Shown here piece after piece: positions 18,469 through 29,849 of a DNA stretch of 32,000 nucleotides. A program made the translations under genes and the position numbers. The stretch comes from Nostoc sp. PCC 7120 = FACHB-418. Lineage in GTDB: Bacteria > Cyanobacteriota > Cyanobacteriia > Cyanobacteriales > Nostocaceae. Location of the stretch: the NCBI RefSeq assembly GCF_000009705.1, contig NC_003272.1, positions 3,870,001-3,902,000 of the forward strand, in the 5' to 3' direction. Numbering within the stretch: position 1 is the first letter of the stretch; every line of letters starts with the position of its first letter. The notes beneath the pieces were generated by a model that was given only the letters and a program-made list of their open reading frames with translations, ran no database searches and was not told the DNA's origin.

Positions 18469-18927
18469 CTATTTTGCGCCCCACTCTAAAACGATGCTGC
18501 GGGTAAAATCGATGCGTTGTGAGAAGTCTAAGGCTTTAACTGTATCAACAAAGCTTTTGGTTTCTAGGGGTAGTTCATAGTCTGATGGGACTTGAATAAT
18601 CTCACCGCTTTCCATACCGCGTGCGAGTCTGAGCCACAATTCTATTTTGGGGCTAGAGTGCAAGGCATTGTAGGTGCGGCTAATATCTGTGTTTCCACCA
18701 CTAGCGATATCCCGTTGGGCTTGTAATTGTTGTTCTTGTGGTAAGGCTCGAATCTGATCGTATAAAGCCGCAGCTGTATCTTGTACGGAAGGTTGATTTG
18801 TTTCTGAATCTAACTGTTCCTTGAGGTCAAGATAGCCATACCACAGTAGAGCTAGTTGGGTGTCAATATCAAAGCCACGAAACTGTTCTATGGCTCTTTG
18901 GGTGCGTTCATCGGTAGCGTAAGTCAT
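18469..18927 (-). CDS. helical carotenoid protein (orange carotenoid protein N-terminal domain homologue)
   Basis: MTYATDERTQRAIEQFRGFDIDTQLALLWYGYLDL resembles the OCP NTD (..DQLALIWFAYLEM..). ATG 18927 with GGAG upstream is preferred over the longer track ORF. Confidence 0.8.
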   Translation of the reverse strand: MTYATDERTQRAIEQFRGFDIDTQLALLWYGYLDLKEQLDSETNQPSVQDTAAALYDQIRALPQEQQLQAQRDIASGGNTDISRTYNALHSSPKIELWLRLARGMESGEIIQVPSDYELPLETKSFVDTVKALDFSQRIDFTRSIVLEWGAK

Positions 18928-19274
18928 GGTAATCTCCGGTTCCTGTGTATTGAATTTTACTGAGGTTACTAAACTCACCTCACTCACAAAATCCTATAAA
19001 TTGAGCCAGGGAGATTAACCCTACTGAAGGTAGAAATGAGTACCTTAGCTTATGACAGATGTAAATATGACATTTGCAGTCCAGAAAAACACCAGTCGTG
19101 GCAAGTGCAATTTTAATTTTTTGCCACCAGAAATCAGGCTTCAAAGTACGTATCTAGCACTTAAAATATTTTATACGTTTATCCCTCTGTTTGCTTAGAA
19201 TAATTTGTGTACTTTATTTTTATACATGAAATATAAGCATATATATTTTACGACTACTGATATATCAATAAATA

Positions 19275-21087: not shown

Positions 21088-22542
21088 ATGCCTGCAATTA
21101 CTTTTGATCTACGTACATCTGAGTGGGATGGTACACCAATTGACAAGTGGGAACCGTCTAAATGGAAGCAATGGAAAGCTAAACAAACTGATGAATTGGC
21201 CAAGGTAGAACGGGAATACCTGCGAATTAAACACTCCGTACAGCAGGCAAATGCAGCTTTAAGTCTAGATAGAATCAAGATTAAATTGAAACTTAGCAGC
21301 CCTAAAAGTATTGCTTTACAAGGTACTTTTCCTTGTAGACCTGGGGATGTAGGTAAACAAGGTAGTCCTAATAAGCAATATACCATTTCTTGCGGATTTC
21401 CTGCTAATGATGCCGGGGTAAAAATGGCTGTTTTGAAAGCACGAGAATTGGATTTATCGTTAATTACAAAACAATTCCAATGGACACCGGAGTTACTGGG
21501 TAAACAGGCACAAAAGATAGAATTACCAACTCAGAAGAATTCTGGAAAACTCATTGGTGAACTAATTCAAGAATATGAGCGTGAATTTTGGAAAACTCAC
21601 GAGCAAAATAGACGAGGGATTCGGACTTGGGAAACTCATTATATGAGGCATTTAAAAAAACTGCCTCAAGATTTACCAATGTCTGCTCAAGCATTAGAAA
21701 TAGCCTTAGAGAAAACTAAGCCGAATACATCAGCGAGGTTTTTTATGGTATGGCAACTAAAGAAGTTTTGTGAGTTTTGTGGAATTGATGATTTTAAAAC
21801 AATTTATGCCTATGCGACTCCTAAACCTCATCCGGCTATTCGCAAAGTTCCATCGGATGAAGAAGTTATCCAAGGATTTAACAAAATTGGTCTGCCTCTA
21901 TCAGTCTACACGAGTAGAGAGAACACTACACAGCCGGAACAATGGCAATGGGCATACGGGATGCTGGCTACCTATGGCTTAAGACCCCATGAATTATTTG
22001 CTGTGGATATAGAAGCTTTTCTGGAGCCAAAAAATACTTTTCATTTAGTAAGTTTAAATCCTAGTTTGACAGAAGGGACTAAAACCGGGGAACGGAGTTG
22101 TGGAATTCCCCCATTACATCCTCATTGGGTGGATTTATTCAAGTTAAAGAATATTAGATTTCCCTATAACGAAGGTAAATTGAATAATAAAACTGCCAAA
22201 CTGTATATCAAATTTAGAAATGCAGATATCGGTTTTAGACCTTATGATTTACGTCATGCTTATGCCATACGAGGCCATCGTTTACGAGTGCCAATAAAGA
22301 CTATGGCAGATTATATGGGACATACAGTACAAGAACATACTAAAAGTTATCAAAGATGGATGAATGAAGATACTAATTTAGAGATTTATAAGGAGGTGGT
22401 GATTCACAGACAAGGTACTAGTAAAGAAGCAATGAAAGAAAGAATCAAGGAATTGGAAGCTGAGAACTTGGCTCTCAAAGCTGAAAATGCTACACTTAGG
22501 GGTTTATTAGTTCAGCATCAATTGGGTGAATTGCTAAGTTAA
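21088..22542 (+). CDS. XisA/XisC-family site-specific tyrosine recombinase
   Basis: 484 aa. Blocks LQGTFPCRPGD..NKQY, WQWAYGMLATYGLRPHELF, KTGER..PLHP.W, RPYDLRHAYAIRGH and GHTVQEHTKSYQRW parallel, from my recollection of XisA (not a computed alignment), the heterocyst excisases. It also has a C-terminal coiled coil like XisA. Confidence 0.8.
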   Translation: MPAITFDLRTSEWDGTPIDKWEPSKWKQWKAKQTDELAKVEREYLRIKHSVQQANAALSLDRIKIKLKLSSPKSIALQGTFPCRPGDVGKQGSPNKQYTISCGFPANDAGVKMAVLKARELDLSLITKQFQWTPELLGKQAQKIELPTQKNSGKLIGELIQEYEREFWKTHEQNRRGIRTWETHYMRHLKKLPQDLPMSAQALEIALEKTKPNTSARFFMVWQLKKFCEFCGIDDFKTIYAYATPKPHPAIRKVPSDEEVIQGFNKIGLPLSVYTSRENTTQPEQWQWAYGMLATYGLRPHELFAVDIEAFLEPKNTFHLVSLNPSLTEGTKTGERSCGIPPLHPHWVDLFKLKNIRFPYNEGKLNNKTAKLYIKFRNADIGFRPYDLRHAYAIRGHRLRVPIKTMADYMGHTVQEHTKSYQRWMNEDTNLEIYKEVVIHRQGTSKEAMKERIKELEAENLALKAENATLRGLLVQHQLGELLS

Positions 22543-25586: not shown

Positions 25587-26041
25587 ATTGTGTTGATTGC
25601 TTTACCAAACTATTTGTAAACTCAAAATAAACCCTGGTAATATATCTTCCCCAGATAATTGTGTTGGGTATGCTAATATTTCTACGGGGTTGTGGGGATG
25701 TGCCATGATATTTGATGATAACAAATCCGATTTGGGAAAATATATTTGATTGTTTGTATTGTTGGGGTGTGTCAACCATATTGTGGTGGTTGAATTATAT
25801 TTTTGGCGTAACCATATTGGGGTGGTGTGCCATGTATTGGATATCAACAACCCTAATTGGGGAAATTTTATTGCGGTGGGATATTTTTGTTGAGTCGGAC
25901 AAGTGTTCGGTTTTGCAACCTACCAACCTATCCAACCCGGTTTTATATTCGGAGGTCGTCACCTTCCTCGCTGGGACAGGTCTGGACTCCCTAATGTGCG
26001 CTCGATAAATTCCCACTTACCGACTCTGACTTTGGGGCGTA

Positions 26042-26170
26042 CTCACAGAATAGCCACCGCGACAACACGAAAACCAACATTGTTGTTCCGATTCGCGCGC
26101 GCGTTTCTGTTGCGATTAGCACAGCGACAGTTCCTGGCATTGTTGTTCCACGAACCGCCACGCAGCAGCT
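26042..26170 (-). repeat. DGR template repeat (TR), non-coding copy
   Basis: 129-nt gapless match to 26359-26487. The sense strand reads ..TGG AAC AAC AAT GCC AGG AAC TGT CGC TGT GCT AAT CGC AAC AGA AAC GCG CGC GCG AAT CGG AAC AAC AAT GTT.. with no upstream ORF. 13 of the 15 mismatches to the gene copy are at adenines of this copy. Confidence 0.75.
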
Positions 26171-26358
26171 AACGTTAACCTAATCCCATGCTCAGATTCT
26201 CAATTAATTGAGAAATCTGATTGTATATAGTGTATATTGGTTAGTAGGCAGAAATAGCAAATTTAAAAAAAAGATCGTTCCGCTTCGCTACACTAACAAA
26301 GTGTAAAGATTAAGAAGTGTAAAGGGGAAAAGGGCAAGAGAGAAAAGGGAAAGGAATC

Positions 26359-26487
26359 CTCACAGAATAGCCACCGCGACAACACGAAAACCAACATTGA
26401 AGAGCCGATACGCGCGCGCGTGCATGTCGCGATAAGCACAGCGACAGCTCCTGGCATGGCTGTGCCACGAACCGCCACGCACCAGCT
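26359..26487 (-). repeat. DGR variable repeat (VR) at the 3' end of the caspase/FGE-sulfatase gene
   Basis: Counterpart of the TR. Codons CAC AGC CAT .. AGC .. TAT .. GAC ATG CAC .. TAT .. CTC TTC replace the TR AAC/AAT/AGA codons. The last 41 nt, including the stop codon, are identical to the TR. Confidence 0.75.
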
Positions 26488-28192
26488 TTATGTTATTATT
26501 TTTACTAGTAAGCAACGCACTTCCATCTGTTGGCGCACCTTGGTAATTATCATTATATATATCTTCGCACCATTCCCATACATTACCACACATATCGTAT
26601 AAACCGAAAGAGTTCGGCGGAAATATTCCTACATTGGTTGTTTCTCCACGATATTTACCTTTGGGTGCAGCACCGTAGGGAAATTCACCGTTGTAGTTAA
26701 CTAAATCTGTGGTGATGGTTTCGCCAAAATAAAAGGGCGTGGTTGTCCCCGCACGACAAGCATATTCCCATTCTGCCTCGCTGGGTAATCGGTAGGTTCT
26801 TCCTGTCTTCTGGCTCAATTTCTGACAAAACTCTACCGCATCATTCCAACTCACTTGTTCTACAGGTCTTTTCTCACCTTTGAAGTAGGAAGGATTATTT
26901 TTATTGCCTATAATCTTTTGAAGAATGTTGCCACCCATAACTGCTTGATACTGTGCTTGGGTAACTGCATATTTCCCCATGAAGAAGCCGGGAACTGTCA
27001 CCTGACGCTGGGGACTTTCCCTATCAAATCTTTCCGCCTCGCTTTCCGGTGAACCCATTGTAAATGTTCCCCCTGGTATCTGCACCATTTCCAAGGTGAC
27101 ACCATTCCCTAAGTCTTCTGCAAAATATTTTGCTGTCCGGTTTTGGCGGTTGGTGATTTTCCCTTGTGCGTTTACCGTCACCACTTCAAATGAAAAGGTC
27201 TCTAAGAGATTTTTTTCAGGTGTAGATACTCCCTTAGGAGGATCATCAGTTTGTCCTTCTTGTTTTACTAGGGTTTTACCACGCAAAAGGACAATTCTCT
27301 TAATTGCCTCGATTGCTTTCGTAGTCTGCGTTGAATCAGCAGTTAAAACCCGCATCCATAATTGTTCTGCCAAATCCCAATTTCTGTTTACTTCTGCTTC
27401 GTAAGCATCTTCTCTAAGGGTAGCAATATCGGCTGGGGTTGCATATCGAGGTACAAGTATTAAATGAGATTTAGTTACAGGCTCGGCAATAATATAAGGT
27501 GTTTGTTTGCCTTTACTGTGGGAGCTAACAATTTCCGAGACACGACGTTGTAGATACTGATTCAAGCTTGCAGCTGTGGTGTATCCATCTCGAAACCCTT
27601 CTAATAATGCAGTAGTAAAAGCACCTTGTTGTAATGCTTCAATTTCATAAGAATATTCCTGCGGACTACAGGAAAAAATACTAATAACCCCTTTTTGACG
27701 TGCTTCTGCTGAGGTTTCTTGGCCAATACCAATATGACCACCTTTTATACCATCTATTTTGCCTTCATTGCGACAAGCATCTAAAATCAAGACAAGATTA
27801 TCAGCACCAGAGCAACGCAGGTTTTCAGTGACAAAGTTAATGGAAATGGCCGTATCTGCAATGTCCCTGGGATTACCATCTGAAGGCATGAGATAATCGC
27901 GTCCATTATGGCGCATCCCATGACCACTGAAGAAAAACCAAAAGTTATCACCCGCACCCATTGAGAGGCTTTCAAATAAAGTTAGTAACACTCGCCGTAA
28001 GTGAGTACGGGTAGGGCGGGTTGAGCTAACCCCAAAATTAGGGGAATCATCACTGAATAAAATAACTTGGTCAAACCCCGCCTCTTTAATGAGAAACTGC
28101 TGGATTAACTCTGCATCCCGCTTGGCATAGTTTAGCGGTTCCAGATAATCATACTGGTTAACGCCGATCGCGATCGCCCAATTTTTCGCCAT
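26360..28192 (-). CDS. caspase (peptidase C14) / FGE-sulfatase (SUMF1, C-type-lectin fold) fusion protein, DGR target
   Basis: 610 aa. The N-terminal caspase domain has FFFSGHG (His) and LILDACRNEG (Cys). The C-terminal formylglycine-generating-enzyme-type domain has MVQIPGGTFTMGS, RLPSEAEWEYACRAG, GNVWEWC and RGGSW...GFRVV. Confidence 0.85.
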   Translation of the reverse strand: MAKNWAIAIGVNQYDYLEPLNYAKRDAELIQQFLIKEAGFDQVILFSDDSPNFGVSSTRPTRTHLRRVLLTLFESLSMGAGDNFWFFFSGHGMRHNGRDYLMPSDGNPRDIADTAISINFVTENLRCSGADNLVLILDACRNEGKIDGIKGGHIGIGQETSAEARQKGVISIFSCSPQEYSYEIEALQQGAFTTALLEGFRDGYTTAASLNQYLQRRVSEIVSSHSKGKQTPYIIAEPVTKSHLILVPRYATPADIATLREDAYEAEVNRNWDLAEQLWMRVLTADSTQTTKAIEAIKRIVLLRGKTLVKQEGQTDDPPKGVSTPEKNLLETFSFEVVTVNAQGKITNRQNRTAKYFAEDLGNGVTLEMVQIPGGTFTMGSPESEAERFDRESPQRQVTVPGFFMGKYAVTQAQYQAVMGGNILQKIIGNKNNPSYFKGEKRPVEQVSWNDAVEFCQKLSQKTGRTYRLPSEAEWEYACRAGTTTPFYFGETITTDLVNYNGEFPYGAAPKGKYRGETTNVGIFPPNSFGLYDMCGNVWEWCEDIYNDNYQGAPTDGSALLTSKNNNIKLVRGGSWHSHARSCRCAYRDMHARAYRLFNVGFRVVAVAIL

Positions 28193-28193
28193 C

Positions 28194-28589
28194 CTACTTT
28201 GGTTCTTGTCGCCTAAATGTCAGTTTAATTGCACCTTTACCACCAGCTTTCGCGCCGTTCCCAATTAACTTGACTTCACCTTCGCCGCTAATTTCTACTG
28301 ATAACTCAATTTCTTCTAGCTGTAACCCAGGGTTGTGATTGGCTTGCTTTTCTGCACGATTAAACAAACCCCCTACCAGTTGTAGAAAGTGTGTCATGTT
28401 TTGTTCTAAGTCTTGTGCTTTGACTGGGAAAGCATCTCCGATGATTTTAGGGCTAGGTATTGTTTTGAGTATGTCTGCTCCGAAACCGCCTGTGTTACTA
28501 TTTCCGCCTTTAGCACCAACACCGTCAGGGGTAGTTTCGGGTGCTTCGCCTGTGACTATCCAAATAATGTCTGAGGTTGTGTCTGTCAT
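28194..28589 (-). CDS. small protein resembling the Trypco1 / CU044_2847 family (peptidase-co-occurring domain)
   Basis: 131 aa. The C-terminal beta-rich motif IELSVEISGEGEVKLIGNGAKAGGKGAIKLTF is typical of that family as I recall it. Its stop lies 1 nt from the caspase ATG, indicating an operon. Confidence 0.45.
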   Translation of the reverse strand: MTDTTSDIIWIVTGEAPETTPDGVGAKGGNSNTGGFGADILKTIPSPKIIGDAFPVKAQDLEQNMTHFLQLVGGLFNRAEKQANHNPGLQLEEIELSVEISGEGEVKLIGNGAKAGGKGAIKLTFRRQEPK

Positions 28590-28718: not shown

Positions 28719-29459
28719 ATGATCATCGCCGCGAAGAATCTGGCTCTACCAGATCACACTCAGCTACCAGATTCTGATGGTAATTTCGTGAAAAATTTTC
28801 AGGAACATCCGCAAAGTATTTTATTAACTGATTCGATTCTGCCACGATTAGAAGAAATTCATCCTGATGGTTATTATTGCATTGGTCAAGATTCTGGTAT
28901 CTATTGGCGGTTAACAGACCCACCAGAGAAAGGTGCAGAAGCGCCGGATTGGTTTTATGTCCCGAATGTTCCGCCAACTCTCAATGGTGAACTCCGCCGG
29001 TCTTACGTGTTTTGGCAAGAATTGATTGCACCATTGATCGTTTTAGAATTTGTTTCGGGAAATGGTGAGGAGGAACGAGATAAAACTCCTTACAAGGGAA
29101 AATTCTGGATTTACGAAAATGTGATCCGTCCTCCTTACTATGGTATCTATGAAGTTAAAAAAGCATCGGTTGAAGTTTATCAATTAGTTGGAAATCATTA
29201 CGAAAAAATACCTGCTAATTCTAGAGGACATTACCCGATTAAGCCTATGGGTGCGGAGTTGGGTATTTGGCCTGGTAAGTTTATCTTGGATACAGAGTTA
29301 CCTTGGTTGCGGTGGTGGGATGAGCAAGGTAATTTACTGTTAACGGGTGATGAACGTGCGGAAGTAGAACGCCAACGTGCGGAAACAATAGAGCAGGAAA
29401 ATGTGCGATTACGGGAACGGTTGCGCGCTTTGGGTGTTGATCCTGATACTCTGGGTTAA
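28719..29459 (+). CDS. Uma2-family (DUF820) restriction-endonuclease-like protein
   Basis: 246 aa. PDWFYV, VLEFVS and K..W.YE....PYYGIYE match the PD-(D/E)xK Uma2 pattern that is abundant in cyanobacteria. The C-terminus is a coiled coil. Confidence 0.8.
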   Translation: MIIAAKNLALPDHTQLPDSDGNFVKNFQEHPQSILLTDSILPRLEEIHPDGYYCIGQDSGIYWRLTDPPEKGAEAPDWFYVPNVPPTLNGELRRSYVFWQELIAPLIVLEFVSGNGEEERDKTPYKGKFWIYENVIRPPYYGIYEVKKASVEVYQLVGNHYEKIPANSRGHYPIKPMGAELGIWPGKFILDTELPWLRWWDEQGNLLLTGDERAEVERQRAETIEQENVRLRERLRALGVDPDTLG

Positions 29460-29576: not shown

Positions 29577-29849
29577 TCAAGTCTTCCTCTTCTTCTCTTT
29601 CCATCTAAAGCAGATGAAATATTGATGATTAATCAGAATGATATGATGTCCTTCTCTGTTGCTTTTTACAGGTTCTATTTTATGGACTGGTTGCACTTTC
29701 ATATCATTCAAAGAAATTGCTGTGTTTAGTTGGTCTAGTTTTCTTTGAGTAATATTTCACAGGTTAATAGGGCAGATTTTTCGAGCTTCTTTTGAATCGC
29801 TACCATCAAAAATATCTTCAGTACCTTGGTCTTTGAAGGATACTATTAT
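29577..29849 (-). pseudogene. decayed HigB/RelE-like (killer protein) toxin gene
   Basis: Hand translation gives IIVSFKDQGTEDIFDGSDSKEARKICPINL*NITQRKLDQLNTAISLNDMKVQPVHKIEPVKSNREGHHIILINHQYFICFRWKEKKRKT*. There is an in-frame TGA at 29757-29759 and ATA where the ATG is expected. No HigA partner lies downstream. Confidence 0.55.

Follow-up and report, generated by a model that had tools for sequence, protein, structure and literature searches.

We found a genuine DGR template repeat (TR) and variable repeat (VR), as judged from the sequence, in a 32,000-nucleotide stretch of the chromosome of Nostoc sp. PCC 7120 (hereafter, the window), at a locus without an RT. The locus is probably an RT-less DGR cassette with a complete template-RNA gene that is served by RT-Avd in trans. 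The TR/VR pair of all3226 is already published; the sole paper that mentions the locus, by Vallota-Eastman et al. (2020), recorded it as "remnant TR-VR homology" (PMC7517822). As a system, the PCC 7120 pair is of a known kind; its arrangement is an under-appreciated one.

A repeat search returned a single strong 129-nt direct repeat with a spacing of 317 nt and an identity of 88%. Base-by-base comparison of the two copies on the minus strand, which is the sense strand, gave an ungapped alignment with 15 mismatches. These fell at 13 of the 28 TR adenines and at 2 of the 101 other bases (Fisher exact p = 1.3e-8). The two non-A mismatches were a C-to-G change at 26165/26482, near the 5' edge, and a G-to-T change at 26107/26424, inside an AGA codon. 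In-frame translation of the TR gave the Asn pattern N N N / N / N / N R N / N / N N N, and the VR residues at these sites were H S H / S / Y / D M H / Y / L F N. The identity of TR and VR ends one base past the TGA stop, and the flanks farther out are unrelated. No IMH/IMH* difference was visible within the repeat, the two copies diverging only past the stop codon; in the VR flank, a terminator-like element comes after a conserved CT-rich tract, and a clear cruciform was not seen in a simple scan. An earlier note on this DNA had claimed the gapless alignment with its offset and mismatch count, the adenine enrichment, the two exceptions, the Asn codons of the intergenic copy against the residues of the gene copy, and the identity of the final 41 nt through the stop codon. 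The alignment was reproduced by both methods, the substitutions proved to be enriched at TR adenines in the formal comparison, contrary to the refuting outcome that the note had named, both exceptions were found, the residues matched our translations exactly, and the 41-nt identity was confirmed. The coordinates of the features are summarized in the following table.

Features of the all3226 locus in the window (position 1 is the first nucleotide of the window).
Feature	Position	Strand	Description
TR (template repeat)	26042-26170	(-)	Non-coding; 28 adenines, mostly in AAC/AAT codons
VR (variable repeat)	26359-26487	(-)	3' end of target gene; 13 of 15 mismatches opposite TR adenines
VR variable core	26400-26464	(-)	
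VR 3' 41 nt	26359-26399	(-)	Identical to TR; IMH-like
Target gene all3226 (610 aa)	26360-28192	(-)	N-terminal caspase and C-terminal FGE-sulfatase/C-type-lectin fold
Pepco gene all3227 (131 aa)	28194-28589	(-)	Pfam PF24393, E = 4.8e-31; BAB74926.1
VR-proximal VR-TR spacer	26238-26358	(-)	CT-rich tract conserved among orthologues, then T-run 26265-26276 (16-locus alignment)
TR-RNA leader	26171-26237	(-)	-10-like TATACA/TATATA region; 5' hairpin 26192-26220; GGGAUUAGGU 26178-26187
Structured 3' RNA domain (164 nt, Sp-like)	25884-26047	(-)	Directly 3' of TR
P1/P2 helices	about 25996-26040	(-)	Within 3' domain
Invariant core AGCGCACAUUAGGGAGUCCAGACC	25979-26002	(-)	Within 3' domain
GNRA (GUGA)-capped stem-loop	25951-25969	(-)	Within 3' domain
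Long hairpin	25892-25938	(-)	Within 3' domain

The TR guanine of the AGA codon (26107) is opposite T in the PCC 7120 VR and opposite C in the VR of N. parmelioides. The changes at VR position 26424 are independent in the two species, and the TRs of other species retain G.

Pfam analysis of the 610-aa ORF identified Peptidase_C14 (PF00656, E = 2e-31) and FGE-sulfatase (E = 6e-61) domains, which bears out the placement of the gene copy by the earlier note at the 3' end of a caspase/FGE-sulfatase gene. The FGE-sulfatase domain covers residues 368-605 of 610, and the last 42 codons are the VR. The SGHG and DAC motifs (His/Cys dyad) are visible in the translation of all3226, and the product is a predicted caspase. 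The protein is an exact match to BAB74925.1 of Nostoc sp. PCC 7120; from the accession offset, BAB74925.1 should correspond to all3226 and BAB74926.1 to all3227. The Pepco gene lies directly upstream of all3226, of which it is the probable operon partner, and almost every related locus likewise has a Pepco gene ahead of its caspase-FGE gene. With a dyad-bearing Peptidase_C14 domain and a neighbouring Pepco gene, the locus has the sequence features of a caspase-Pepco conflict-system module with predicted protease activity.

The 3' end of a convergent PAS histidine-kinase gene lies ~455 nt past the TR. At 3.5 kb from the TR is a 484-aa ORF (21088-22542 (+)) with XisAC_N and XisAC_2nd domains, which it shares with the recombinases responsible for excision of heterocyst-specific DNA elements; Nostoc FACHB-87 likewise has a XisA/C-like homologue close to its cassette. 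The interval from the Pepco gene to ksgA contains a gene for a Uma2 putative endonuclease (28719-29459 (+)) and a small HigB-like toxin ORF (about 29577-29753 (-); weak Pfam match, from contig L001), and Uma2 genes flank the cassette in other Nostoc loci too. Ordinary cyanobacterial content of the window includes a tRNA-Asp gene (2407-2480 (-)), two tandem Ser/Thr protein kinase genes (2678-4237 (-) and 4260-5864 (-)), and a gene for a helical carotenoid protein with the OCP N-terminal domain (18469-18987 (-)).

When orthologous loci were aligned, starting at the VR stop and ending 450 nt beyond the TR, a conserved block emerged that includes the TR and extends from ~75 nt upstream to ~150 nt downstream of it. 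Conservation ends abruptly outside the TR block, and the surrounding intergenic DNA is unalignable. The orthologues have a GC hairpin and a T-run at the position of the T-run in the VR-proximal spacer. A simple terminator scan made no call near 26265-26276, so that the spacer element is taken from the alignment as the presumed terminator of the target gene. In regards to the leader, GGGAUUAGGU is able to pair with ACCUGUCCC, which lies downstream of the TR; six long-range pairs emerged from full-length RNAalifold and pair counts, each of them paired in 18-20 of 20 sequences. The leader may also contain the promoter of the TR RNA. The -35 region upstream of the TR is poor, and a simple consensus promoter/terminator scan returned no promoter upstream of the TR and nothing convincing for the TR RNA. 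In the supplements of Brenes-Alvarez 2016, all3225-3227 go unmentioned, and no transcript evidence for the TR RNA was found there.

The 3' domain contains the core consensus AGCGYACANNNNNGAGUCCAGACC. An alignment of 23 copies supported 38 pairs, 21 of which showed compensatory changes; 97.4% of the cells were paired, versus 34-44% in slid controls, and none of 500 shuffles reached the observed values. The structure is supported by covariation and not by energy, as single-sequence folding was not exceptional (z = -1.77). With the covariance model R1, which includes RT-linked copies, the window domain scored 170 bits over its full length, which is in the same range as other RT-less copies. Rfam at the gathering threshold identified only a tRNA within the window. 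Helix P1 begins 2 nt after the TR/VR homology ends, and this is where cDNA synthesis would begin by analogy with the template:primer duplex of BPP-1. Cyanobacterial DGR RNAs have a conserved GNRA "Avd-binding stem-loop" and an upstream/downstream "cPRT Stop duplex" (Handa et al., bioRxiv 10.1101/2023.10.23.563531), which the GUGA stem-loop and the GGGAUUAGGU/ACCUGUCCC pairing of the window match. The covarying 3' domain, the GNRA stem-loop, and the upstream/downstream duplex together have the makeup of a DGR cis-acting RNA with a predicted role in priming.

The same RNA domain occurs beside RT-linked DGRs. Its core also follows the TR of the canonical RT-linked locus L058, and the domain is found beside RT-Avd in L058, L134, and L137. 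A metagenome scan with the core yielded 38 loci, about 27 of them DGR-type; RT-Avd was directly downstream of the domain in L101, L106, L107, and L127 and directly upstream in L098 and L108, and was missing from many other loci despite kilobases of flank. Among the listed genome loci with the full-length domain, 31 of 32 had no RT/Avd within the fetched flanks (up to 10 kb per side).

Eight viral-contig matches to the core motif, all without an RT, were rejected as chance matches. The L098 metagenome contig, which carries a DGR RT, also contains two Acido-Lenti-1 RNA matches (3214-3259 (-) and 3326-3371 (+)), which scored 38.8 and 33 bits against a gathering score of 37.

We searched the window for RT and Avd by several methods. 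RVT_1 and bAvd had no Pfam match among the 20 largest ORFs, and phmmer with cyanobacterial DGR RT and Avd sequences returned nothing from all six-frame ORFs of the window. A Nostocales RT profile run against all six frames with the filters off gave a best E of 4.8, which is noise. No RT was present in a further 6 kb past the window end on contig L001. RT and Avd were absent for at least 26 kb to one side of the locus and 12 kb to the other, and not even a pseudogene or remnant of either was found within the window. The locus has neither a DGR-clade RT nor a bAvd gene adjoining a TR or RT. As there is no local RT or Avd, any activity must come in trans. PCC 7120 is reported to have two DGR RTs elsewhere in its genome, alr3497 (also given as all3497) and all5014 (PMC7517822), and avd-TR-brt is able to act in trans (PMC5758913).

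A genome scan with the 610-aa protein identified at least 80 homologous loci. Among the loci listed, 16-17 resemble PCC 7120 in carrying a TR downstream of the VR, at a distance of 146-200 nt (379 nt in L085), and in none of these TR-bearing loci did the fetched flanks, of at most 10 kb to either side, contain an RT or Avd. RT/Avd occurred among the loci listed only at L058 and L047, both from distant cyanobacteria. Mismatches between TR and VR were confined to adenines in several RT-less orthologues (15/15 in L018, 14/14 in both L016 and L017, and 10/10 in L011) and in two syntenic RT-less cassettes (17/17 in L135 and, inside the repeat, 13/13 in L136).

The VR agreed with its own TR in 830 of 852 comparisons at non-A positions where the TRs differ between species, and the PCC 7120 VR did so at 15/15 to 18/18 of such species-distinguishing positions. 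The TRs of PCC 7120 and N. parmelioides (L009) are identical save 5 A-sites, and their VRs differ at 14 of 22 A-sites versus 4 of 99 non-A sites. Where the TRs agree, the VRs of different species differ at 10-18 of 22-25 A-sites versus 2-6 of 78-99 non-A sites. The tracking of each TR by its own VR and the divergence of the VRs at A-sites imply a TR-to-VR flow of information with adenine mutagenesis after the lineages split. These results indicate that TR-to-VR transfer took place in loci without an RT.

The concentration of between-species VR differences at TR-adenine sites is the outcome of a check on related strains that the earlier note had proposed, and its reading of the pair as a DGR TR/VR is supported by the adenine bias, the CLec-fold VR, the RNA elements flanking the TR, and the A-confined differences between species. 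Its further claim of recent activity is supported on an evolutionary scale only, from the VR differences between species; all assemblies of the PCC 7120 lineage share one VR. In this lineage the protein is unchanged and the VR is identical on 21 contigs, including FACHB-709, NIES-23, and culture "metagenomes"; as the contigs are ~100% identical over 15.6 kb, the identity of the VR says little either way. In the N. parmelioides TR (L009:11993-12121), the first AAC-AAC-AAT block reads TTCGCCGAT, exactly as in its VR (cf. window 26141-26147), and part of this template seems to have been overwritten from the VR.

Two genomes contain both an RT-less ksgA-ispE cassette and an RT-Avd on another contig or plasmid. 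The single isolate assembly of Nostoc sp. FACHB-87 contains L135, an RT-less locus that is orthologous to and syntenic with that of the window; its order is ksgA, ispE, DUF3082, Pepco, caspase-FGE, TR, 3' domain, XisA/C-like gene, and PAS kinase. A different contig of this assembly carries L134, with two FGE targets, bAvd, RT, TR, and the 3' domain. All 18 mismatches of its VR1 are at A, and its TR is only about 70% identical to the TR of L135. In the finished genome of Fischerella sp. NIES-4106, the same syntenic cassette is chromosomal (L136; 3' domain, 177 bits) with no RT in 21.7 kb, and an RT-bAvd with its own TR lies on a 78.7-kb plasmid (L137). In both genomes the RT-linked TR is 68-71% identical to the TR and VR of the RT-less cassette, and the RT-linked 3' domains score 101-104 bits versus 167-177 bits for the RT-less ones. 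As the RT-linked 3' domains are more divergent than those of the RT-less cassettes, trans recognition is plausible at most. One MAG likewise pairs an RT-linked locus (L058) with an RT-less one (L062). The presence of the cassette at the same ksgA-ispE site in PCC 7120, FACHB-87, and Fischerella means that the RT-less cassette predates their split. These comparisons indicate that the RT-less ksgA-ispE cassette is old and in register with its own TR in each lineage.

The published reading is that the locus is a relic, in which an original RT was lost or which arose as a copy of a complete DGR, and that its TR and VR are frozen and slowly decaying. The lack of RT, Avd, or a pseudogene of either within the window, the two non-A mismatches of the PCC 7120 pair, the invariant VR of its lineage, and the "remnant" wording of Vallota-Eastman et al. 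all agree with this reading, as do decaying orthologues (9 A and 11 other mismatches in L031; 10 A and 15 other in L034) and the loss of the TR in 12 related loci. However, an unused TR and 164-nt domain would not stay intact beside unalignable intergenic DNA, and the VR of each ksgA-ispE lineage equals its own TR at 98-100% of non-A sites, differing only at A sites. Such lineage-specific agreement at an old RT-less site implies TR-to-VR transfer after the RT-less state arose. We therefore regard a relic as unlikely.

A second alternative is that the VR is a remote target of the TR beside one of the PCC 7120 RTs and that the local TR-like copy is an irrelevant duplicate. Remote targets of distant TRs are documented, and BAB74925.1 is listed as a remote variable protein under the all5014 element in the supplement of Vallota-Eastman et al. 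(PMC7517822). This alternative is nevertheless very improbable: the VR equals the local TR at 99 of 101 non-A positions and at all 15-18 positions that separate it from the TRs of other species, and the local TR has full DGR-RNA flanks. In FACHB-87 and Fischerella, the low identity of the RT-linked TRs noted above means that they cannot template the RT-less cassettes. An ordinary tandem partial duplication of the gene 3' end that gene conversion had homogenised, its A bias being due to chance or composition, would suit two direct repeats 317 nt apart and is effectively refuted by the Fisher p value, by the same A bias arising independently in more than 10 species, and by a TR flanked by an RNA domain that otherwise lies beside DGR RTs.

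We accordingly favour an RT-less cassette served in trans, which would work as follows. The cassette would consist of the target gene (Pepco and caspase-FGE/CLec, all3227-all3226) and a separate, complete DGR RNA gene. An RNA of ~340-365 nt would be made from the minus strand, roughly from 26230 to 25884, and would comprise the 5' hairpin, one strand of the long-range duplex, the TR, and the four-helix 3' domain with the GNRA stem-loop. RT-Avd from elsewhere, for which alr3497 and all5014 are the candidates in PCC 7120 from the literature, would bind this RNA. Priming from the 3' domain at the P1 helix would be followed by copying of the TR with misincorporation opposite adenines, and the cDNA would replace the VR via the ends that TR and VR share, 41 nt at the 3' side and an identical stretch at the 5' side. 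About 13-17 codon positions would thereby be rewritten in the lectin-fold sensor domain of a caspase-type effector. Within this scheme, we infer the transcription of the TR RNA, the RT that serves it, and the priming site; diversification may continue in present-day PCC 7120.

Beyond PCC 7120, we lean towards the view that such RT-less "DGR satellites" are a stable class in heterocystous cyanobacteria rather than debris, each with a target gene and its own complete template-RNA gene, retained over very long periods at fixed chromosomal sites (ksgA-ispE, from Nostoc to Fischerella), and served in trans by the RT-Avd of another locus or replicon. If so, one RT-Avd would run several independent template RNAs, and the VR-TR recombination likely behind the fusions at 12 loci would be a recurrent off-switch of satellites. 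At these loci (L008, L014, L020, L021, L022, L023, L025, L029, L033, L035, L057, and L086), which include the finished genomes of Calothrix NIES-4101 and NIES-4105 and Nostoc C117, a VR-like gene end is fused to the 3' RNA domain and the separate TR is gone. The domain begins ~4 nt upstream of the stop codon of the target and is intact (142-177 bits), and the gene 3' ends resemble the VR and not the TR. The fusion likely arose by recombination across the identical 3' segment, and the 12 loci without a separate TR indicate that the cassette is breakable. The idea that the fused loci are self-templating was rejected as unsupported; they are without a leader to form the long-range duplex, and adenines are not depleted in their VRs.

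Two Logan contigs of the PCC 7120 lineage, L006 (5749-7625; SRR29636225) and L007 (3454-4509; ERR10446356), also have the VR joined directly to the 3' RNA domain, with a junction that omits 317 bp relative to window 26042-26358. We did not accept this junction as a real deletion, as a k = 31 assembly may skip the loop at the 41-nt identical segment; it is either such loop-skipping or a real VR/TR recombinant.

As DGR surveys take the RT as their starting point, they overlook cassettes that consist of a template RNA and a target alone, or write them off as remnants. If these cassettes are served in trans, hypervariable proteins in multicellular cyanobacteria are undercounted, and one RT-Avd must recognise several distinct template RNAs via a conserved RNA domain. 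In that case, the requirements of DGR-template RNAs are also testable in PCC 7120, a genetically tractable model. The cassette also connects a caspase-Pepco module with DGR diversification, in keeping with the suggestion that such proteins act as diversified sensors of immunity or cell-death systems.

The locus shares with the BPP-1 system (mtd-VR, avd, TR, Sp, brt) adenine-specific TR/VR differences, a VR at the gene 3' end, a target with a C-type-lectin-type fold, and an identical IMH-like 3' end. The BPP-1 TR needs flanking upstream RNA and ~140-160 nt of structured downstream RNA, and the window TR has similar flanks. Unlike BPP-1, the PCC 7120 TR has no adjoining avd or brt, the repeat shows no visible IMH/IMH* difference, and the target is a cytoplasmic-type caspase fusion and not a phage tail fibre; the TR RNA also appears to be a transcription unit of its own past the target-gene terminator. 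In regards to Rfam, positions 1-144 of the RF02921 (RT-14 RNA) model align over their full length to the 3' domain (25892-26039(-)) with the same helix order. The scores are below the gathering score of 48.1, at 27.8 bits (E = 0.18) for the window and 44.1 bits for the RT-linked L127. The RT-14 motifs were defined by their proximity to RT genes (Weinberg et al. 2017), whereas the window copy has no RT gene nearby.

Among the closest known systems are the cyanobacterial DGRs of clade 5E, for example Nostoc punctiforme Npun_F4892, alr3497 and all5014 of PCC 7120, and L134, L137, L101, L106, L127, and L058. They have in common with the window locus an RNA 3' domain with the invariant GAGUCCAGACCU core and GNRA stem-loop, the FGE-sulfatase/CLec VR scaffold (RGGSW...VGFRVV), and conflict-system domains such as caspase/CHAT, trypsin, EAD, VMAP, and MoxR. 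Clade 5E loci have bAvd and RT 0.1-1.3 kb from the TR, whereas the window locus has none. The 3' domains of the satellites form a tight, highly conserved subgroup (141-179 bits), in contrast to the RT-linked copies in the same genomes (101-104 bits).

The arrangement also resembles the remote or incomplete DGRs that act in trans, namely those of Trichodesmium IMS101, DGRs 1, 3, 4, 5, and 7 of Thiohalocapsa PB-PSB1, and the remote targets of Wu et al. 2018, in which a VR is diversified at a distance from its RT; the idea that another locus may provide the RT and/or TR is likewise shared. The well-supported published remote VRs match an RT-adjacent TR, whereas the PCC 7120 remote locus carries its own, different TR. 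Compared with the published remote targets, the PCC 7120 cassette has the full RNA elements, and its arrangement is conserved and syntenic across genera.
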